The notes below the pieces were generated by a model. That model did no database searches and had not been told where the DNA came from. It saw only the letters and a list, made by a program, of their open reading frames with translations. Made by a program: the position numbers and the translations under genes. A DNA stretch of 64,000 bases from Escherichia phage vB_EcoM_IME537: the sequence record NC_054921.1; one strand, given 5' to 3'. Shown here one piece after another: positions 6,307-44,058 of this stretch; within the stretch, counting starts at the first letter, position 1, and every line of letters starts with the position of its first letter.

Positions 6307-6541
6307 CCTTAATACAAGATACAGCCATATCTTGTAATGATTTAGGTGTGTCATTATCTAAAATGTTGAAGTTAAAAGATACAGCCCAGTCAGTGCAGAC
6401 CGTAACCTTTTTAATACAATTATCTTCAACTTCTAGCGGTTCAAACCAATATTCAATAATTTCTTTATGCCCAATATCATCTTTTACTTCGCATTCAAAA
6501 TGCTGACTCATCATAACATTTTTAAATTCATCAAAAGTCAT
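6278..6541 (-). CDS. 46.2: hypothetical protein (T4 46.2 position)
   Basis: 87-aa ORF; ATG overlaps the gp47 stop (ATGA). Confidence 0.55.
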   Translation of the reverse strand: MTFDEFKNVMMSQHFECEVKDDIGHKEIIEYWFEPLEVEDNCIKKVTVCTDWAVSFNFNILDNDTPKSLQDMAVSCIKDAYCEVFDI

Positions 6542-7557
6542 TGTGTTGCCTCTACATATAACTGATTTGCATATTGAATAAGTGCTTCGCGATCAGAATC
6601 AGTGATGTCTGGAATTGCATTAATGTATTCTTCCATCAATGTCTGAAGAGATTGAACTTCAACTTCTTCATTATCATCTGACTCAACAGAGTTATCAATC
6701 TTTGACACAACTCGTAATGAATGCACAACTTTTTCTAGTTCAGATTCGAACTTCGTCAGATTTTTGTCTACCTCAGTTACTATAACACGTACTGACAGAT
6801 TTGTAAAATCTTTGTAGTCAATTTTTCCCTTAAATGGGTATTGAATTCGACGATGCCAAGTAGTGTTGTTTGGAATAAATTCCATTCGTTCTGTTTCTGT
6901 ATCAAACATCCAGAACCCGCGAGGGTCATTCTCGTCACCTGCAGTTAGTGTCCATGGTGTCCCAATATATCTGACGTTAGCAGCCTCAGAGATAGTATGG
7001 AAGTGACCAGACCACACTTCTTTATAAGTCTTAAGGAAATCAGGTTCAAGACCGTGAGATTTCATTCCTTTATAAAAATAAAATCCATTCAGTTCCCAGT
7101 GACCAACACAAAAAGAAGCAGATGAAGTTTTGATGTGTTCAAGAATTTCACCAGTATTTTCTTCACACATCCAAGGAATTAAATCAATCAAACATCCGTC
7201 AAAATCTACTGTAGTAGGCTTATCATATACTTTAACATTAGGATATTTAGCCAAAAGCTCAGTAGAAGCATTTGGAGTTAAAGTATTTTTAAAGTGCATA
7301 TCATGGTTTCCTACAACAGTATGTAGGGTAATACCAGCATCATCAAGCATTTGAACTATTTCACGGGCAAACTCCATAGTTTTATGTGTGATTGCTTTTC
7401 GCACATCAAAAATATCACCATATTGAATCCATGTAGTAATTCCATTTTTCTTAGAATATTCTATCGCCTGCTTAATTCCATCCAACTGGATTGATTGAAC
7501 CCACTCATCATCGGCTTTAACGCCTAAATGCCAATCACCTAAATTTAAAATTTTCAT
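6538..7557 (-). CDS. 47: recombination endonuclease subunit gp47 (SbcD/Mre11-like)
   Basis: 339 aa; phosphoesterase motifs GDWH, GDIFD, GNHD. Confidence 0.9.
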   Translation of the reverse strand: MKILNLGDWHLGVKADDEWVQSIQLDGIKQAIEYSKKNGITTWIQYGDIFDVRKAITHKTMEFAREIVQMLDDAGITLHTVVGNHDMHFKNTLTPNASTELLAKYPNVKVYDKPTTVDFDGCLIDLIPWMCEENTGEILEHIKTSSASFCVGHWELNGFYFYKGMKSHGLEPDFLKTYKEVWSGHFHTISEAANVRYIGTPWTLTAGDENDPRGFWMFDTETERMEFIPNNTTWHRRIQYPFKGKIDYKDFTNLSVRVIVTEVDKNLTKFESELEKVVHSLRVVSKIDNSVESDDNEEVEVQSLQTLMEEYINAIPDITDSDREALIQYANQLYVEATQ

Positions 7558-13277: not shown

Positions 13278-13748
13278 TTAATCATGTTTCCACACCCCAT
13301 CGGTATTTGACCAAAGCCGCTGATTATCTGAACCTCGCCACAGCTTTTTGGTCGGAAGATTTTTCTCATACTTCCCATCAATAATAACATCAACATATTT
13401 AAGCATTTCTAGTTGTTTAATATCTTCAAACTTATATCCTGTCCACAACCAAATGCTTTTATTCGGATAAAGATTTTTTACCGTTTGAACAATGCAATGA
13501 ACATCATCTCGGTTATCAGGATAAAGAGGGTCTCCTCCAGTTATAGTTAATCCTTCTATATAATCATTATTCAAACATTCAATTAATTGTTCTAGTGTTT
13601 CACCAGTGAATGGAACGCCATTTCTAGCATTCCATGTTGATTTATTATAACACCCTTCACATTTATGCAAACACCCCGTAACGAAAAGAACGACCCTGCA
13701 TCCAGGGCCATTTACAAAATCGCAGGGATAAAATCTATCGTAATTCAT
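13278..13748 (-). CDS. nrdG: anaerobic ribonucleotide reductase activating protein NrdG (radical SAM)
   Basis: 156 aa; CxxxCxxC-type cluster (CLHKCEGC). Confidence 0.9.
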   Translation of the reverse strand: MNYDRFYPCDFVNGPGCRVVLFVTGCLHKCEGCYNKSTWNARNGVPFTGETLEQLIECLNNDYIEGLTITGGDPLYPDNRDDVHCIVQTVKNLYPNKSIWLWTGYKFEDIKQLEMLKYVDVIIDGKYEKNLPTKKLWRGSDNQRLWSNTDGVWKHD

Positions 13749-15024
13749 TGGTGTTTAACCCTATGCATGATTTCTTTATTTTTGCCGAGATTAAATCCGC
13801 GTTCATTCGGATTTCCCAAATAACCACAAGTTCTTCTTATTGTGTTCATCTTTTTAGGATCAGTTTCTCCACAAACAGAACAAACAAATCCGTTTTCAGT
13901 AGGAGTCATTTCATGGGTACTTCCGCATGTAAAACATTTATCTACTGGCATATTAACACCAAAATAATCTAAATGTTGTGCAGCATAATCCCATACAGCC
14001 TCAAGACCTTTTAGGTTATTTTTCATATCAGGAAGTTCAACATAAGAAATGTGACCACCTGTCGCAATGAAATGATATGGGGCTTCGCGAGAAATCTTTT
14101 CAAACGGAGTAATATTTTCTTCTACTGAAACGTGGAAACTGTTAGTGTACCAGCCTTTATCAGTAACATCCTTTACACTTCCATATTTTTCGGTATCAAG
14201 TTTACAGAAGCGATAGCACAGGTTTTCAGCAGGTGTAGAATACAAACTAAAAGCAAAACCGGTTCTTTCAGTCCACTGCTTAAGATGAGCATTCATTTTA
14301 GTTAAAATTTCTTGTCCAATATCACGACCGACAAGAATATTCAATTCGTGAATACCAATGTATCCTAAGGACACTGAACTTCTACCGTTTTTAAATAACT
14401 CAATTATATCGTCATCAGGTTTAAGACGAACCCCGAATGCGCCTTCTTGGTAAAGAATAGGAGCAACAGTAGCTTTAACTCCTTTTAAGGAACTAATTCT
14501 ACACATCAATGCTTCAAAACATAAATCCATTCGCTCATTGAACAATTCGGCAAATTTCTGTTCATTGAACTGTGTTCCAATATAAGAATCTAACGCAATG
14601 CGAGGAAGATTCAGTGTTACAACACCAAGATTATTACGTCCATCAAGAATTTCATTACCAGTCGAATCTTTCCATACACTCAAGAAACTACGACAACCCA
14701 TTGGAGAAACAGGAATAGATGAACCGGTGATAGCTTTATTGTTCTTAGCCGAAATGATGTCAGGATACATTCTTTTGCTTGCACACTCTAGAGCAAGCTG
14801 CTTAATATCATAGTTCGGATCGTCTTTATAAAGATTAACACCTTCTTCAACGAACATAACAAGTTTAGGGAAAATAGGAGTTATCCCATCACGACCGAGA
14901 CCTTTAATACGATTTTTCAGAATTGCTTTCTGAATCATTCGTTCAGTCCAGTCAGTTCCCGTGCCAAATGTAATTGTTACAAAAGGCGTTTGTCCATTAG
15001 AGCTGAAAAGTGTATTTACTTCAT
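13745..15024 (-). CDS. nrdD: anaerobic ribonucleoside-triphosphate reductase NrdD, exon 2
   Basis: open frame continues upstream of the track start; predicted 3' splice site after G at 15025; C-terminal glycyl-radical region. Confidence 0.8.
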
Positions 15025-16069
15025 CATTATATTCAGCATGAGTCGCAAATTCATGCCCGTTTATATGAAACAACAAAATTTGGATAGTCCATAGATATGC
15101 AACGTTCTTTTATAGTGCTAGGATGAAAATTTAGCGCTTTAGCTGCTTCTATATAAGACGTATACTTAATACCGTCAACAACCACATATTCAGGAACTTT
15201 ATGAATAGTAGTCTTAATACTCAAAACAAGAGGATGAGTTTCGACTTCACTTTCAGTGCAATTTAAATATTCCGCTGCTTTTTTAAAACTTCTAAAAGTT
15301 TTATTTTTAAGCTTTATCGATACTTGTTTTTTACTTTTTCGACTATTGATATTATTTTGCACATGTTCCTTAGATCTTCCGTTTTTAGCATAATATTCAG
15401 CTACAGAAGATTTTATATTGTTTTTATGAGATTCGGATAACACTTTACCCTTATGAGCATCTCTTAATTTTTGAATATGTTCTTCAGTATCCGGATGCTT
15501 ATAAAACTTTTTACCGCCTATGGATTTATTTAAACATTTTTTGCTATAAAAATATTTACGTATGACCTCTTCTTCATGTTTTAATGCATCTTTATAACTA
15601 TCAAATGTTTTTAAAATTATCCATTTAGTAGGTGTATCAGTTTTTAAGCGTTCATTTATATACTTAGATGACGTTGTGTAAGTTTTCCAGTTTGTGGGCT
15701 TGTTTTTAATTGTTCTAAATTTTTTATAACCGATATAAATGTCGCCATTAGAAAACTTAACTAAGTATGTAAATGCGTCTTTATCTTTTATTTTAGTACA
15801 ACGTCTTTTTATCCATTTCATTGTTTCACCTCGTATTCATAAGATAATCTTATTTATACAAGATGACTGCTGCATGTCGCCATGCAGATTAGACTATATC
15901 TTCATCTTTCGATGCCGGCCGTTTCGAATAGCATTAGCTTCTATTCTACACCGCTACATTCATCACGGTTAGTCGTTAGGCATTTAGTTCAAAAGAACAT
16001 TTAGCACGGGATTGTCTACTAGAGAGGTTCCCCGTTTAGACCGGTTTTACATGAGCCTGAATTAAATTA
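15025..16069 (-). mobile_element. group I self-splicing intron in nrdD carrying a homing endonuclease ORF
   Basis: splits nrdD; exon 1 ends in U, intron ends in G; contains I-TevII-like ORF. Confidence 0.8.
15051..15821 (-). CDS. I-TevII: intron-encoded GIY-YIG homing endonuclease (I-TevII-like)
   Basis: 256-aa ORF with its own SD GAGGTGA; N-terminal GIY-YIG-type motifs (DIYIGYKK). Confidence 0.8.
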   Translation of the reverse strand: MKWIKRRCTKIKDKDAFTYLVKFSNGDIYIGYKKFRTIKNKPTNWKTYTTSSKYINERLKTDTPTKWIILKTFDSYKDALKHEEEVIRKYFYSKKCLNKSIGGKKFYKHPDTEEHIQKLRDAHKGKVLSESHKNNIKSSVAEYYAKNGRSKEHVQNNINSRKSKKQVSIKLKNKTFRSFKKAAEYLNCTESEVETHPLVLSIKTTIHKVPEYVVVDGIKYTSYIEAAKALNFHPSTIKERCISMDYPNFVVSYKRA

Positions 16070-16607
16070 ACTCATAAGCTTGGAATGCATCGTATACGTC
16101 TTTTTCTGTTTTAGATTGGGCATAATTCAATGCATCAGCGATTTGCCATTTTTCTGCATCCTCAATATGTTTTGCATAGGTGCGTTTAACATAAGGAGAA
16201 AGTACTTTATCTACATTCGCAAAAGTCGTTCCGCCATATTGATGAGAAGCAACCTGCGCAGTAATTTGTGCCATAATTGCAGTAGCAACGCCAATTGATT
16301 TAGGAGTTTCAATCTGCGCATTACCAAGCTTAAATCCGTTCTCAAGCATTCCTTTTAAATCTACTAAACAACAATTAGTAAATGGAAGAGCAGGGGAATA
16401 ATCAATATCGTGGAAATGGATAATTCCGCTTTCATGCGCTTTCATAATAAAAGACGGGACCATATTTTTGGCAATGTGTTTAGACACAATACCAGCCATA
16501 AGGTCCCGTTGAGTTGGAAAAACACGAGAATCTTTATTAGCATTCTCGTTTAAAAGGTCTTTATTAGTTTTATGAATCAATCCTTCAATTTCTTTTTCAA
16601 TTGTCAT
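16070..16607 (-). CDS. nrdD: anaerobic ribonucleoside-triphosphate reductase NrdD, exon 1
   Basis: ATG 16607; joined with exon 2 gives 605 aa across junction AYE|YEVNTL. Confidence 0.8.
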
Positions 16608-24041: not shown

Positions 24042-24071
24042 ATAGTACCACAGAGGAACAGTCTTGTAAAC
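24042..24071 (-). promoter_or_regulatory. sigma70-type early promoter (-35 GTTTACA, -10 TACTAT with TG extension)
   Basis: transcript strand GTTTACAAGACTGTTCCTCTGTGGTACTAT. Confidence 0.55.
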
Positions 24072-24073
24072 CA

Positions 24074-24388
24074 CTAAAAGAAACTTCTTTCACAATTTTT
24101 TCCACTGAACCATGCGCTCACTGCTTTCTTAGTCTCAGGAGCAGTGTTATCCATAAACCATTCAAAGGCAGCCTTTTTATGATTCTGGAGGGCTTCTCGG
24201 GCTTTAATCTGCTCACGGTCTATTAACACTAACATATGAGCCTTTCTTGTCACCATGGGCTTCTTATGATTTTTTGAATACTCCCAGTCATTTGTCCATC
24301 GCATTGTCGTTGCGAACTGAAATACTGCTTCTTTAATTTTAGTTTCGTAAATTTCACGAGCCTTTGAGTATAACATCACTACCTCCAT
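24074..24388 (-). CDS. hypothetical protein
   Basis: 104-aa ORF, ATG start. Confidence 0.45.
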   Translation of the reverse strand: MEVVMLYSKAREIYETKIKEAVFQFATTMRWTNDWEYSKNHKKPMVTRKAHMLVLIDREQIKAREALQNHKKAAFEWFMDNTAPETKKAVSAWFSGKNCERSFF

Positions 24389-24458
24389 TCACCAGTTTAA
24401 TTCTAGTCATCTTTTTAATGGCAGTCCATATAATCTATTTCTGAACTGCCTTTTTGTC

Positions 24459-25178
24459 TTAGGATTCTTCTAAATGTCTTTTCTGAAAAGTTGATACCAT
24501 ACTACGATACGGTTCATTTGGATATCCGTGTTTTATAGCTTCCTTTGTAAATTTTCTCCATCCATATTTAGTTTCTTTCCAAAGCTCGAATAATTCATCT
24601 TCATACTGCCATATAGTTAAATGAGAACGCTTTGCAGCTTTAATTCCATTAATATGCTTTTCTTTTACTGCAGGATTGCTTAGTTTCTTTTTAATAATAT
24701 TACTAACTTTTCTAACAAAAACTGGGTCCTTATATCGTTGCGAAGTTTTTATTGAAGTGTTTAATTTAGCTTCCGGCGTGGATGTAACCTCTTTCATCTT
24801 TTTCTTCATATGCTGTATATGATTAGGATTTTTCCATAAATTTATAGAATGCTTTTTGCATTTTATCCTAGTTTCATCTGCAACCTTTCCTCCTTCACCC
24901 CCGTATGACAGGTTAACACAGTTTTTTCCATATTTCAATTTACCTGCCATGATATATAATATTTCAGCTTGTACCATTTTATCATAATTATCAAAAACTT
25001 CTAAAACCGTTTTTGATAATATGTGGTCATTTGACACTTTTACACGTTCTATATAATTTCCACTACCAACATACGAATCATTGATGTTATTAGTTATATG
25101 TCGACCATAATAGTATTTCTTAATACCTGTCTTTAAATTTAATATTTCAGTTTTATAGATAGTAAAATATTTTTTCAT
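24459..25178 (-). CDS. free-standing Seg-family GIY-YIG homing endonuclease
   Basis: 239 aa; N-terminal GIY-YIG-like motifs and GGEGG, as in the segB product in this window. Confidence 0.65.
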   Translation of the reverse strand: MKKYFTIYKTEILNLKTGIKKYYYGRHITNNINDSYVGSGNYIERVKVSNDHILSKTVLEVFDNYDKMVQAEILYIMAGKLKYGKNCVNLSYGGEGGKVADETRIKCKKHSINLWKNPNHIQHMKKKMKEVTSTPEAKLNTSIKTSQRYKDPVFVRKVSNIIKKKLSNPAVKEKHINGIKAAKRSHLTIWQYEDELFELWKETKYGWRKFTKEAIKHGYPNEPYRSMVSTFQKRHLEES

Positions 25179-26143
25179 TTTAATAATACCGTTTCAGCAA
25201 TTTCTTCCCAACCGTTTTTATCGGTCATAATAAAGTCAGCAAGATAAAGAGCAGTACGCAGTGAAACATTGCGTAAACGATTAACATTGACTTTCATCCA
25301 TGATAATGCTTTATAAGTTTCTTCATCAGAAAGACCGCGCTTTTGCATCATGTCGGTTGAAAGAATAACATCTTCAACCCTGACCATAATTTCTTCATTA
25401 GTGTGAACACCCAAATCCAAATAAACTGAGCGGGATACTAATGCTTGTAAATGTGGAGCAAGTTTAGTACCACGGTCTAATTCGCGGTCAATGTCAACGT
25501 TTGTGATAAAAACAATCGTTCCTTTAAATTCAAACTCACGCTCAATGCCTTTTTCTTCTAAGTAAGAAGATGCAGTGCTCCAGCAGACTTTACGGGTCTC
25601 TCCAGTGTCCAGAGCGGCTTTTAGAAGATTAAGAATGTCCATATCAGAGAAAACATCCACATCATCAATCAAAAGGACAGAATTCTCTTCACGATTATTC
25701 CAAAGTTGTTCATAAAGACCGATACCGGAGATTTTACCGTTAATGCTTTTATATTCAATGTATCCATTATCATTTGCTTTATTCAAAGCTTTATCTAAAG
25801 AATACGTTTTACCAATACCTGCTGCACCAGAGATAATTAATGAACGAATGTTTCCGTTAATAATACCATTCGTCATCATTCCCATAACATTAAATCTTTT
25901 ATTAATGCGGGTTTTCATATCTTCATATGATTCTTTAACTTCTTCAACTTTTACACCATCATATGAAATGTCTGATTTGTAAACCCAAACACCGCGACGT
26001 TTACCGTCAATTTCAACAAAAACTTTACCATCTCCTTGTGCATCTACCGGAGCATTATCTGGGAACCATTCACCTAAGAGCTCAAAAGTTCCAGAGATTT
26101 CTTTACCGAAGTAGATACCCTTATTGATAGTTACAGTTTTCAT
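25175..26143 (-). CDS. P-loop NTPase (AAA-like)
   Basis: Walker A GAAGIGKT, Walker B VLLIDDVD; start set to ATG 26143 with SD GGAGA. Confidence 0.6.
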   Translation of the reverse strand: MKTVTINKGIYFGKEISGTFELLGEWFPDNAPVDAQGDGKVFVEIDGKRRGVWVYKSDISYDGVKVEEVKESYEDMKTRINKRFNVMGMMTNGIINGNIRSLIISGAAGIGKTYSLDKALNKANDNGYIEYKSINGKISGIGLYEQLWNNREENSVLLIDDVDVFSDMDILNLLKAALDTGETRKVCWSTASSYLEEKGIEREFEFKGTIVFITNVDIDRELDRGTKLAPHLQALVSRSVYLDLGVHTNEEIMVRVEDVILSTDMMQKRGLSDEETYKALSWMKVNVNRLRNVSLRTALYLADFIMTDKNGWEEIAETVLLK

Positions 26144-26179
26144 TTTATTCTCCAATTTTACATTTGTTTTGATAGGGTA

Positions 26180-26209
26180 ATAGTATCACACTACTACCCT
26201 GCTGTAAAC
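26180..26209 (-). promoter_or_regulatory. sigma70-type early promoter within an inverted repeat
   Basis: GTTTACA-N17-TACTAT; flanked by GATAGGGTA / TACCCTGC. Confidence 0.5.
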
Positions 26210-26212
26210 AAT

Positions 26213-26476
26213 TTATTTTAATGTTCGCCAAATTTTTACTGCTTCGCGACGAGATACTTCTACAGCTCCAAGTTCTACAGCTTTTTGGCGTCGCCGAGCG
26301 TGTAAGTCATAATGTTTAATGCGTTTATCTTGAAACCAAGAACGTTTCATTCCTATTGCTTCTGCCATTTCGTGAAGCTCTTCAATATCTCCATCAGTGA
26401 ACATATGACAATTTTTAGTTGGATGACCGCGAAGTTTCCATCCATGATTCATTAAAACATCTACGTAAACTGTCAT
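26213..26476 (-). CDS. small conserved protein, DUF4031-like (recalled motif only)
   Basis: 87 aa; GWKLRGH...EELHxxAxxIG...WFQ...HYDL pattern. Confidence 0.45.
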   Translation of the reverse strand: MTVYVDVLMNHGWKLRGHPTKNCHMFTDGDIEELHEMAEAIGMKRSWFQDKRIKHYDLHARRRQKAVELGAVEVSRREAVKIWRTLK

Positions 26477-26622
26477 TGATTCTTCTCCAAATAAGTTTCG
26501 ATAATTTTCTGAGCGAGATAAACTGCATTATCTTCAGTTGCATCTTCTAAGAAACTTTCAAAACACTCTGAAATTTCTTCTGTGTCAATCAACTTTTTTA
26601 CTTCAATTGGTGTAATTTTCAT
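26473..26622 (-). CDS. small acidic hypothetical protein
   Basis: 49 aa from ATG 26622; the track's N-terminal extension spans a hairpin. Confidence 0.3.
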   Translation of the reverse strand: MKITPIEVKKLIDTEEISECFESFLEDATEDNAVYLAQKIIETYLEKNQ

Positions 26623-26687
26623 TTTGTTTTTCCGTTTAAGTGTTTGTTTTGATAGTTGTATAGTACCATAAGCCCGAAGGCTCCCTA

Positions 26688-27701
26688 TCATTTATAATAA
26701 CTTCGGTGGTTTTCAAGATAGACCTTCTCAAGGAAGTCATCCCAGAAACTCATGTCTACTGTTTTAGGCATACCGTTCTTAGAAGCTTCAGTAGATGCTG
26801 CTTCTACTTGATCGACCACATCTTCCAAAAACTCTTGAACCGTTTTAAATGGATGTTTACCCAACTTCACGTCAAGAATAAATGGAGCGTCTTGAAGTGG
26901 ATAAACCAAGTCACCAGTTTTGTAAATTTCCAATAGTTGAAGTCCACCACGACAAGCATGGCTCAGAGCTTTCCAGTCAATACCTTCGTTGGCTTCGGCC
27001 TTACGGGCACGTTCACCATATTCAGCATCTAATTTGTTCAGTGACTGCTTAAGCTCAATAAGAGAAAGCGTTGTCTGATATTTACGACCCAACACAGTGT
27101 AGAACATTTGCGGGCCTGTTTTCTCATAATTATGGAACACCCATTCACAGAACTCGTTTTCTGGAAGACGATGCTTAATATCTTCAACTTTAGTGCGACG
27201 AAGTCTATCAGGGATTCCTTCTTGATAGTCGACCCACTGGTCAGGGATTTGATTAACTACTTTCAATACATCACGTAATGCGGCCAAACGAGAACCCTTG
27301 ACACCGTATTTAGAAGCTTGCTTACGGACATATCCTAAATAGGATTTCATGTTAGTCGTATAAAAACGAGAACGGTTGTCTTGAATAAACTTCCACACAT
27401 CAGGCAAATCAGATTTAACCACTAGCTCAGGTGGAGTGTGAAGCATATCTAATGCTACAGTTTCACCATCTGCTGCTAATTTAAAGAAATACTTAAGACT
27501 GTATAGTTCATGGTCAATATCATCTTTAGTGTTTTTAGATGATGTGTTGTTAGTGTTTTTACTCATGTGCTCTTTAACGTTTCCAATAAGAATATCACGA
27601 GCAGGAGGAACAAAGATTTCTTTAAAATCTACATCAGATTCTGGTGTAGAAGTTCCATAAAGATGACTACCAAAATAACTTTTCATTACTGTTTTCATCA
27701 T
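26688..27701 (-). CDS. Pol-beta-superfamily nucleotidyltransferase, specificity unknown
   Basis: 337 aa; N-terminal GS-x10-DVD motif (GSHLYGTSTPESDVDF) and a downstream acidic residue (ALDMLH). Confidence 0.55.
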   Translation of the reverse strand: MMKTVMKSYFGSHLYGTSTPESDVDFKEIFVPPARDILIGNVKEHMSKNTNNTSSKNTKDDIDHELYSLKYFFKLAADGETVALDMLHTPPELVVKSDLPDVWKFIQDNRSRFYTTNMKSYLGYVRKQASKYGVKGSRLAALRDVLKVVNQIPDQWVDYQEGIPDRLRRTKVEDIKHRLPENEFCEWVFHNYEKTGPQMFYTVLGRKYQTTLSLIELKQSLNKLDAEYGERARKAEANEGIDWKALSHACRGGLQLLEIYKTGDLVYPLQDAPFILDVKLGKHPFKTVQEFLEDVVDQVEAASTEASKNGMPKTVDMSFWDDFLEKVYLENHRSYYK

Positions 27702-28159
27702 TCAGCCTTATATTCAATAACAGGACACACTTTAGCTTTACGAGCTTTTAAAAATTCAACGATAATCGATTTCTTGGGTTGAATAGGAGGTAAACCTTTA
27801 TACGCCCTATCAATGTTTTCTACGTGTAAAGCATAATCCTTTTTCCATTTATAATCTTTATATTTTTCACGCAAATGTGCAGGAATAACAAATGAACCGA
27901 TAATAAGTAAAACAACAAAAAGCGCAAGTATAAATGCCGATGGAAGAAGAATCCATAAACTACCGAAAATAAGCCAACGTTGTAGGCTTTCTGCACAAAT
28001 AATTGTTAGCCCTACGAGTATAGCACATCCAAAAATAGAAACGAAAAATGTAGGAATGGCAATAGACCAAAAATATGCGCATAGTGTCTTAGGTCGTTGC
28101 CATTCATCGTTAAACAATTTGAATAATTTATAGTGCCAAGAGTTTTCATTAATAATCAT
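27698..28159 (-). CDS. membrane protein
   Basis: 153 aa; 3-4 predicted transmembrane helices. Confidence 0.5.
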   Translation of the reverse strand: MIINENSWHYKLFKLFNDEWQRPKTLCAYFWSIAIPTFFVSIFGCAILVGLTIICAESLQRWLIFGSLWILLPSAFILALFVVLLIIGSFVIPAHLREKYKDYKWKKDYALHVENIDRAYKGLPPIQPKKSIIVEFLKARKAKVCPVIEYKAE

Positions 28160-43392: not shown

Positions 43393-44058
43393 TTAAAATT
43401 TCATTTTTCGACCTTTAAACCATCCTTCTGGAATTGGGTCAGTTTTCTTAATACGTTTAGAAACTTTTTCATCTAATGAATGAATCCACATCATACCAAA
43501 TTGGGAATTCTTTTCTCCTTTCTGGTGATTATTTTTAGCGTGAATTTCTTTCATTTTATTAATAGTTTCAGGAGTATGATGCTTATTTAAAAATCTGCTA
43601 TTATTTAAAAATTTTTCCTTGTATTCAGGAGTTGACCACAAACGTTTAAATACATTTGAACCAATTTTACGATATTTTTCTTGAAGTAAAATATCATTTT
43701 CAAAACGTGATTTAAACGATTTAGCTCCTTTTAAGCTAGCATCTTTCTTCTGGTTTAGCATCCCAGGAATATTTATATGGTCCCATCCACCTTCACCGCC
43801 AAGTTTTAAATTATACACATCTGGTCTATTTAAAAACTCTTCTGTGACAATATTTTTCTCGGCTTCAAGCATAGATTCTTTATCATCAAAATACTCTAAT
43901 ATTTCTTTAGAGAAATTTTCTATACCATACTTGTCTTGGGCTCTTTTTAATAATTTACCAGAACCCATATATCCATCATCTAAATTTTCGGTAGAATGCA
44001 CACCAATATAAATTTTATTATTAATTTTATTTGTTATTTTATAAGTGTAATGGAACAT
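43393..44058 (-). CDS. segB: GIY-YIG homing endonuclease SegB
   Basis: 221 aa; YTYKITNKINNKIYIG...GGEGG; embedded in the tRNA cluster as in T4. Confidence 0.85.
   Translation of the reverse strand: MFHYTYKITNKINNKIYIGVHSTENLDDGYMGSGKLLKRAQDKYGIENFSKEILEYFDDKESMLEAEKNIVTEEFLNRPDVYNLKLGGEGGWDHINIPGMLNQKKDASLKGAKSFKSRFENDILLQEKYRKIGSNVFKRLWSTPEYKEKFLNNSRFLNKHHTPETINKMKEIHAKNNHQKGEKNSQFGMMWIHSLDEKVSKRIKKTDPIPEGWFKGRKMKF

Follow-up and report, generated by a model that had tools for sequence, protein, structure and literature searches.

A putative free-standing Seg-type GIY-YIG homing endonuclease gene behind nrdC.10 in Escherichia phage vB_EcoM_IME537

The locus

The subject of this study is a gene of 239 amino acids (aa) in the T4-like (Tequatrovirus) Escherichia phage vB_EcoM_IME537, of which a stretch of 64,000 nucleotides (sequence record NC_054921.1), called the window in the following, was analysed. 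A preliminary description made from the letters alone had read the gene as a free-standing homing endonuclease of the Seg family with a GIY-YIG domain, situated in the nrdC-rI accessory region. The open reading frame (ORF) is real and complete from ATG to stop in the ORF list, and it lies on the minus strand, which that description had left unstated. It is found within the nrdC-rI block as proposed, flanked by nrdC.10 and nrdC.9 (Table 1). The reported overlap of its ATG with the stop of an ATPase gene is located at the end of nrdC.10: the plus strand reads tcat at 25175-25178, giving ATGA on the coding strand, and the ATG (25178-25176) shares bases with the TGA that ends the upstream 326-aa ORF. 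The product of nrdC.10 has weak Pfam matches to AAA/STAND ATPases and matches phrog_1250 at 2.6e-166. A 2.2-kb query around the 239-aa ORF matches 526 phage records, most of them with 95-99 % identity. The gene is free-standing in that both neighbours are intact in phages with the gene (carriers) and in those without it (non-carriers). Furthermore, Rfam finds no intron in the whole window, where only eight transfer RNAs (tRNAs) were matched, and no family at the region of the ORF.

Table 1 Features of the endonuclease locus and of related positions in the window (minus sign, minus strand; point, no strand assigned)
Feature	Position	Strand	Basis or remark
Putative Seg-like GIY-YIG homing endonuclease ORF	24459..25178	-	ORF list, phrog_314, GenBank annotations; counterpart of RB32ORF093c and T6 AXN58132
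N-terminal GIY-YIG catalytic domain, residues 1-100; key positions Y8, Y23, G25, H27, E72, N89 and GGEGG 93-97	24879..25178	-
Central all-helical region, residues 101-185; about four helices of 17-18 aa with the pattern 'x-N/T-P-E/A-x-K...'; presumed to be an extended linker that binds DNA	24624..24878	-	AlphaFold2 model
C-terminal small helical module, residues 186-239	24462..24623	-	Helices 193-203, 207-216, 225-238
Mobile cassette, 733 bp replacing about 38-40 bp of non-carriers	24463..25195	.	blastn against T4, junctions in 17 genomes, GC content, diversity
Recoded nrdC.10 3' end in the cassette, GAA ACG GTA TTA TTA AAA TGA (ETVLLK*)	25175..25195	-	Present in 8/8 carriers; candidate self-immunity patch
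nrdC.10, gene of an AAA-like ATPase (326 aa); upstream gene and presumed target gene	25175..26155	-	Pfam, phrog_1250
nrdC.9 (DUF7203), downstream neighbour	24074..24388	-	Pfam
Sigma-70/T4-early-type promoter-like site upstream of nrdC.10 (TTTACA-17-TACTAT with TG)	26180..26208	-	Consensus scan
SegB of the window, between tRNA-Arg and the tRNA-Met/Ile gene; carries GGEGG	43393..44058	-	Passes PF01541

Similarity to Seg-type endonucleases

Over its whole length the 239-aa protein matches the PHROGs family phrog_314, 'homing endonuclease', at 1.4e-30. An alignment of the single ORF with a profile built from T4 SegA-E and I-TevI (hhalign) gives a probability of 96.8 % and an E value of 2.2e-10 across residues 4-100, which comprise the complete catalytic domain. 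Among the T4 proteins, blastp finds SegB (5e-12), SegF (1e-8), SegE (2e-8), SegA (1e-7), SegC (9e-7), SegD (1e-5) and SegG (0.03). The comparison with T4 SegA-G that had been suggested in the preliminary description thus yields similarity to SegA-F, and the Seg signatures can be aligned with the same six proteins. The window itself encodes a SegB protein which passes the Pfam GIY-YIG family PF01541 and shares 28 % identity with the 239-aa ORF over 171 aa (BLASTP, E 3e-13).

A word-indexed protein search returned just two proteins and was replaced by an exhaustive HMMER search of 1.84 billion cluster representatives, which found 1426 relatives at E<=1e-3. The ORF and 73 of the best of these relatives were combined into a family alignment of 74 sequences, among which PF19835 (SegE_GIY-YIG) is present in 21, PF01541 in 8 and NUMOD3 in 24. 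Since 65 phage records encode the protein with at least 95 % identity and 1426 cluster representatives match it, the ORF is not a chance reading frame.

The N-terminal motifs are TIY (residues 6-8), YYG (23-25) followed by RH, NDSYVGSG, AE (E72) and VNLSYGGEGG with N89 and the GGEGG at 93-97. In the family alignment G25, Y36, G38, G40, E72 and N89 are invariant, and Y8, Y23, H27, D34, S39, G93 and G94 are conserved in at least 90 % of the sequences. Y8 and Y23/G25 align with the GIY/YVG motif of I-TevI (Y6/Y17), E72 with E75 and N89 with N90, so that both the catalytic Glu and the catalytic Asn are represented by invariant residues. The signatures of the Seg proteins are also present, namely GRH (G-x-H), NDSYVGSG (N-D-x-Y-x-G-S-G) and GGEGG (G-G-x-G-G). 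The last of these is shared with the SegB protein of the window, as had been noticed before. The earlier reading as a GIY-YIG homing endonuclease of the Seg family is therefore supported by the PHROG and hhalign results, the similarity to SegA-F, the conserved catalytic positions and the sporadic, indel-type distribution described below.

Predicted structure and domain architecture

An AlphaFold2 model calculated from the 74-sequence alignment has a mean predicted local distance difference test (pLDDT) value of 95.8. Its N-terminal core consists of a strand (4-14), a second strand (20-29), a helix (41-47), a third strand (52-62) and a long helix (65-86), followed by an all-helical C-terminal half. 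This is the three-stranded antiparallel sheet with flanking helices and the strand-strand-helix-strand-helix core of a GIY-YIG domain. Foldseek returns 101 matches at E<=1e-3 among predicted viral structures (BFVD), and most of the matches listed with names are designated as Seg-like, GIY-YIG or group I intron endonucleases. At the level of the predicted model, this establishes the fold as well as both catalytic residues, Glu and Asn.

The central region is built of helices at 101-116, 118-132, 135-150, 152-166 and 169-190. A role of these helices in DNA binding is presumed by analogy with the architecture of I-TevI and the Seg proteins (PMC2988022). The small C-terminal module, with its three helices, is presumed to be a DNA-binding domain resembling a helix-turn-helix. 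The C-terminal region matches no Pfam domain; NUMOD3 (PF07460), which is present in T4 SegA and SegC, was found neither in the ORF nor in its C-terminal 139 aa at E<=1.

The C-terminal module, about 50 aa long (…HLTIWQYEDELFELW…GYPNEPY…), also matches alone in six proteins (P0010, P0020, P0040, P0113, P0116 and P0133), all of them without Pfam annotation. HMMER reports one to four matched stretches in each of the six, not every one of which is stated to be the C-terminal module. The module may represent an undescribed DNA-binding module of phage nucleases.

The cassette and the recoded end of nrdC.10

In T4, nrdC.10 and nrdC.9 are 94 bp apart with no gene between them. By blastn, the 733-bp cassette of the window (Table 1) stands in place of about 38 bp of T4. 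The junctions were compared in eight carriers (the window, AR1, T6, ZN18, SYGD1, pSe_SNUABM_01, RB32 and RB51) and nine non-carriers (T4, three IMG/VR contigs, HY03, fPS-65, Kha5h, sb3 and G2540-3). All eight carriers share the same clean boundaries. At one end, homology picks up again at the stop codon of the endonuclease gene (…CC followed by TAAGACAAAAAGG). The other end lies within nrdC.10. Seven of the nine non-carriers end this gene with GCT GAG GTT ACT CTT CTG AAA TAA (…IAEVTLLK*), whereas all eight carriers have GCT GAA ACG GTA TTA TTA AAA TGA (…IAETVLLK*), the TGA of which overlaps the ATG of the endonuclease gene. Over the last six codons of nrdC.10 the peptide is hence nearly the same in the two groups while about half of the bases differ; the adjoining DNA is only about 2 % different. 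The GC content of the cassette (29.6 %) is below that of nrdC.10 (35.9 %) and nrdC.9 (39.4 %).

T4 itself deviates at this place: a 1-nucleotide insertion (AF158101 54335-54374) shifts the frame at the end of nrdC.10 and changes the tail to …IATGYSSEINS*. As this tail lies in the presumed homing site, it might be a variant resistant to cleavage.

Distribution and diversity

A 301-bp query with the empty site of T4 aligns without interruption to 435 of 501 Tequatrovirus records, and in the others the match is split. In tblastn searches the protein is found with at least 95 % identity in 65 phage records, and all other matches stay below 60 %; 55 of the 65 copies are at least 99 % identical at the protein level. 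The carriers, about 13 % of the Tequatrovirus records, include the phages T6, RB3, RB32, RB33, RB51, RB68 and AR1, whereas T4 is without the gene. Presence and absence are accordingly polymorphic among close relatives, with clean boundaries.

The flanks behave differently from the cassette. Among the eight carriers, nucleotide diversity is 0.0043 in the cassette against 0.0225 in the left and 0.0180 in the right flank, a roughly five-fold difference. Flank diversity is equal within carriers, within non-carriers and overall, and the groups are undifferentiated. No single nucleotide polymorphism (SNP) is fixed between the eight carriers and the nine non-carriers within about 1 kb on either side, and the polymorphisms are mosaic up to the junction. 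Over this distance there was thus no haplotype linked to carriage, be it a tract of co-conversion or a polymorphism at a distant cleavage site. Such a young, nearly uniform element on old and shuffled backgrounds is the pattern that repeated homing would predict. The preliminary description had suggested that the gene may explain local differences from T4; this holds for the 733-bp cassette, together with the recoded six codons that end nrdC.10, but not for the rest of the surrounding 1 kb.

Some copies are broken. The copy of AR1 (6464-7195 of the AR1 locus) has a 1-nucleotide deletion beside a run of T, and its annotated product comprises 165 aa. In RB3 the annotation divides the gene into two proteins, with 96 and 159 aa (BFVD A0A097J0Y0 and A0A097J0Y1). 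Both cases could reflect decay or sequencing errors. Among the relatives, a protein of 197 aa (P0002) is without the first two strands and another (P0004) is a fragment of 104 aa.

A homolog at the same site in Jiaodavirus

The nearest distinct homolog is gp68 of Klebsiella phage vB_KaeM_Nispero, a member of the genus Jiaodavirus, which is annotated as 'hypothetical protein'. It is 46 % identical over the full length and keeps the whole architecture. The gene is located directly behind a 326-aa ortholog of nrdC.10 with 74 % identity, and is therefore at the same insertion point in a phage of another genus and host. As in Tequatrovirus, the gene is an indel: the close Jiaodavirus relatives L023 and L034 (IMG/VR) are without it, with 49 bp in the place of the 739 bp of Nispero. 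Here, too, homology breaks off inside the last codons of nrdC.10, which read …EVTMLK* without the gene and …EVTQLRG* with it. The two loci differ in that gp68 starts 8 nucleotides past the nrdC.10 stop, with no overlap, and in that its downstream neighbour is not nrdC.9.

The stop regions of nrdC.10 in non-carriers of the two genera, GAAATTGCTGAGGTTACTCTTCTGAAATAATTCATA and GAAATTGCTGAAGTAACAATGCTGAAATAATTTAAA, agree at 29 of 36 positions (manual count). That both genera use one site speaks for site-specific homing to the region of the nrdC.10 stop codon and not for chance insertion, and makes this region the best candidate for the recognition site.

Comparison with characterised endonucleases and earlier annotation

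The Seg enzymes A, B, C, E, F and G of T4 are active and are preferentially inherited in mixed infections (PMC2988022, PMC2330249). The best match among them, T4 SegB (221 aa), has 27.5 % identity to the 239-aa ORF over 171 aa and shares the elements Y..Y.G.H, NDxYxGSG, the catalytic Glu and Asn and the GGEGG. Like the ORF, it combines a nuclease with a helical C-terminal region, is free-standing and occurs sporadically in T-even phages. However, SegB is located among tRNA genes instead of between nrdC.10 and nrdC.9, passes the Pfam GIY-YIG family, and is without the two insertions of two residues each in the first hairpin of the ORF; nor is the part of the ORF beyond about residue 186 common to both. 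Activity and homing of SegB have been demonstrated (PMC2330249); those of the 239-aa protein are putative.

T4 SegE shares the N-terminal GIY-YIG domain, with 34 % identity over 111 aa (E 2e-8). Its similarity to the ORF is limited to this catalytic domain, and T4 segE is situated between inh and uvsW, with uvsW as its target. The label 'segE' in the records of AR1 and RB68 would imply orthology to T4 SegE. This was rejected on account of the different locus and of a similarity which covers just the 111 N-terminal residues; because T4 segE sits between inh and uvsW, the label is wrong. Judged by its sequence, the 239-aa ORF is not an ortholog of any of the T4 proteins SegA-G, since identities are 22-34 % and mostly concern the catalytic domain only.

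I-TevI of the td intron (PDB 1LN0) resembles the ORF in its aligned tyrosines, the pairs E75/E72 and N90/N89, and the modular layout of a nuclease and an extended DNA-binding region. In contrast to the ORF it is intron-encoded, and the similarity is marginal: the family profile reaches I-TevI at E 0.14. No zinc finger and no recognisable I-TevI DNA-binding domain was detected in the ORF by Pfam, and the segment with R27/H31 is absent from the Seg-type proteins in the motif alignment. According to the account given in PMC2988022 of Sandegren et al. (2005), SegH is a GIY-YIG gene in place of mobC beside nrdD in several T-even phages. It is likewise a sporadic Seg-type gene not found in T4, 31 % identical over the N-terminal 151 aa (tblastn), but belongs to the nrdG/nrdD locus and is similar in the catalytic domain and part of the linker only.

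GenBank has contained the gene since the genome of RB32, where it is RB32ORF093c, a 'putative site-specific intron-like DNA endonuclease, similar to seg', and T6 and RB51 are annotated likewise. Two seg-like genes are listed for RB32 (Petrov et al. 2010, PMC2993671), one of which is presumably the gene linked to nrdC.10. The gene is thus already known as an annotation in T6, RB32 and about 60 others and is experimentally uncharacterised; the finding is correct but ordinary.

Expression

No convincing promoter of its own and no terminator-like site was found for the endonuclease gene in consensus scans, and no sequence resembling a Shine-Dalgarno motif was seen by eye. On the coding strand between 24300 and 26300 there is no exact match to the late promoter (TATAAATA) or to a MotA box; the sole hit, with 7 of 8 positions, lies at 24846-24840 inside the ORF. 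Upstream of nrdC.10 a promoter-like site is present (Table 1), whose counterpart in Yersinia phage fPS-65 is annotated as a 'predicted early promoter'. As no convincing signals of its own were found, the gene would most likely be transcribed early as part of the nrdC.10 message and translated by coupling at the ATGA overlap.

An identical promoter-like site (TTTACA-17-TACTAT with an upstream TG) is located at 24042-24070 on the minus strand before nrdC.8, and it also corresponds to a predicted early promoter of fPS-65.

Proposed intronless homing and alternative explanations

Taken together, the 239-aa ORF probably encodes a free-standing homing endonuclease like the Seg enzymes of T4 and spreads by intronless homing, of which it is most likely an active or recently active agent. 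In the proposed course of events, the gene would be transcribed early jointly with nrdC.10 and its translation coupled through the ATGA overlap. The product would consist of an N-terminal GIY-YIG nuclease and a long helical C-terminal region which recognises the DNA. In a genome without the gene it would introduce a break in or near the stop codon of nrdC.10, or in the sequence between nrdC.10 and nrdC.9, at GCTGAGGTTACTCTTCTGAAATAATTCATAAGAGG in Tequatrovirus and a similar sequence in Jiaodavirus. Subsequent UvsX-dependent repair from the genome of a carrier would copy the 733-bp cassette into the break. The carrier would be protected from its own enzyme because the cassette replaces exactly the presumed target and brings along a different coding of the six codons that end nrdC.10. 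In this scheme we infer the nuclease activity, the position of the cut, the mechanism of immunity and the mode of expression, while the fold and the motifs, the precise ends of the indel, the recoded tail, the sporadic occurrence, the site common to two genera and the low diversity of the cassette are results of the analysis.

A more detailed proposal can be made tentatively, at somewhat less than even odds. The gene would then represent an uncharacterised and still spreading Seg lineage whose homing site would straddle the nrdC.10 stop codon and be sufficiently conserved to have served in two genera of the Tevenvirinae. A built-in, nearly synonymous recoding would protect the carrier. Unlike the characterised Seg enzymes, the nuclease would cut at or next to the insertion point, and it would read the DNA by means of a C-terminal helical module which is part of no curated family.

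Several points weigh against an assignment as homing endonuclease with a target at the junction. Neither PF01541 nor PF19835 of Pfam matches the full protein or its residues 1-102 even at E<=10, and NCBIfam gives no match to the ORF. A phmmer search of the PDB sequences yields a single spurious match (E 0.42), and Foldseek finds no match in the PDB. The tyrosines of the GIY and YIG elements are 15 residues apart instead of the canonical 10-11 (11 in T4 SegA-E), owing to the two insertions in the first hairpin relative to T4 SegA-E. The canonical arginine of motif B (R27 of I-TevI) is not assignable, as the matching segment of I-TevI is missing from the ORF and from all T4 SegA-G proteins in the alignment; R26 and R45 are candidates, and H27 is nearly invariant. 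Those free-standing endonucleases that have been characterised mostly cleave at a distance of hundreds to thousands of bp from their own gene (PMC2988022), and for this reason the cut site may not be at the junction. If it were distant, the carrier would find no protection within 1 kb, where the two groups show no further fixed difference. A single recent gain with ordinary recombination afterwards could also account for the low diversity of the cassette. With eight carriers and nine non-carriers, the sample is small, and it was taken from ranked hit lists; the nine SNPs within the ORF, five nonsynonymous and four synonymous, are too few to show purifying selection. Finally, no paper that names or tests the gene was found in the literature on nrdC.9, nrdC.10 and RB32ORF093c.

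The silence of Pfam and NCBIfam was considered as evidence that the domain is absent and was rejected by a control. Experiments have established SegF and SegG as Seg endonucleases (Table 1 of PMC2988022), and in the same Pfam scan both proteins of T4 match nothing, while SegC, SegD and SegE stay under the gathering cut-off of PF01541. For the 239-aa ORF, the miss is plausibly explained by the two hairpin insertions, each of two residues, that widen the distance between the motif tyrosines. The preliminary description had named a profile search without a GIY-YIG domain as grounds for abandoning the assignment. This is formally the outcome with Pfam and NCBIfam, but it is not a valid refutation here, since proven enzymes are missed as well; the PHROG match and the hhalign result identify such a domain. 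With regard to the motifs of that description, the tyrosines are present and conserved, whereas their spacing is not the canonical one. Pfam and NCBIfam thus overlook this branch of GIY-YIG proteins, and a result of 'no domain' is no refutation for Seg-type genes.

Among the alternatives, a recently inactivated relic is unlikely. Such a former homing endonuclease would drift neutrally to loss, tightly packed behind nrdC.10, and the decaying copies in AR1 and RB3, the shortened P0002 and P0004, the nonsynonymous to synonymous ratio of 5:4 and the unusual hairpin spacing together with the lack of a Pfam match would be in line with this. But the copy in the window is of full length with all positions conserved in the family intact, and the near-identity of most copies points the same way. 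The five-fold lower diversity of the cassette fits a recent spread better than an old neutral decay, and the 46 % identical homolog of Jiaodavirus retains the entire architecture.

Slightly less probable again is a nuclease that has been co-opted for the benefit of the phage, be it by marker exclusion, by protecting or spreading an allele of nrdC.10, or by amplifying nearby genes. In T6, SegB drives the segmental amplification of anti-defence loci including gp49.1-nrdC.1, a few kb from the endonuclease locus (PMC13096335). Seg enzymes are also known to cause marker exclusion (PMC2988022), and the gene has been kept behind nrdC.10 in two genera. Carriage in just about 13 % of the Tequatrovirus records, the existence of decayed copies and the finding that no flanking haplotype travels with the gene speak, however, against a beneficial function. 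Moreover, co-option and ordinary homing would not exclude each other. A DNA-binding or regulatory protein that merely resembles the Seg enzymes, or a chance ORF, is very improbable: the lack of matches to Pfam GIY-YIG, NCBIfam and the PDB, by sequence or by Foldseek, is countered by the conserved catalytic Glu, Asn and motif tyrosines, by the equal failure of the proven SegF and SegG in Pfam, and by the conservation of the ORF in 65 genomes and 1426 relatives.

Compared with the existing annotation, the reading as a homing endonuclease gains the exact boundaries of the cassette, the recoded tail of nrdC.10, the insertion site common to two genera and the contrast in diversity, in addition to the unreliability of a Pfam miss as a refutation for this clade. 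For work on homing endonucleases, the locus offers a compact case, in which about 36 bp around the nrdC.10 stop codon are the candidate target, and a natural, recoded allele that is a candidate for being 'immune'. Classical phages differ in carriage, T6 and RB32 having the gene and T4 not, and the homolog of a Klebsiella phage occupies the same site. The understanding of Seg-type elements remains unchanged by these results. Their value is modest, with a routine annotation confirmed and the name 'segE' corrected.

Further features of the region

Between the stop codon of the endonuclease gene and nrdC.9, a hairpin with a stem of 9 bp and a loop of 13 nucleotides is found at 24420-24450. The fold of 91 nucleotides has an energy of -17.7 kcal/mol (z -3.3). 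The hairpin belongs to the conserved flank and has the same sequence in T4 and other non-carriers.

Two small ORFs are situated at 26213-26691 (minus strand) between nrdC.10 and nrdC.11; they encode an 87-aa DUF4031 protein (Pfam 8e-22, phrog_4887) and a short product behind it. The pair is absent from T4, T6, RB32, RB51, AR1, Kha5h and G2540-3 and present in SYGD1, HY03 and fPS-65. The alignment with ZN18 likewise extends beyond nrdC.10 at this indel. The DUF4031 indel is independent of the carriage of the endonuclease gene.

Directly after nrdC.11, a predicted membrane-like ORF of 153 aa at 27698-28159 (minus strand) takes the place where T4 has the HNH endonuclease gene mobD; its counterpart in the RB32 record is labelled 'replaces mobD'. 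A further GIY-YIG ORF, similar to I-TevII, is located at 15051-15821 (minus strand) and is 56 % identical to I-TevII of T4. It lies between the ORFs 13745-15076 and 16062-16607, which are apparently exons of nrdD. Rfam reports no group I intron there at the gathering threshold; over 3 kb the nrdD region is collinear with nrdD, the intron and I-TevII of T4, with 85 % DNA identity.

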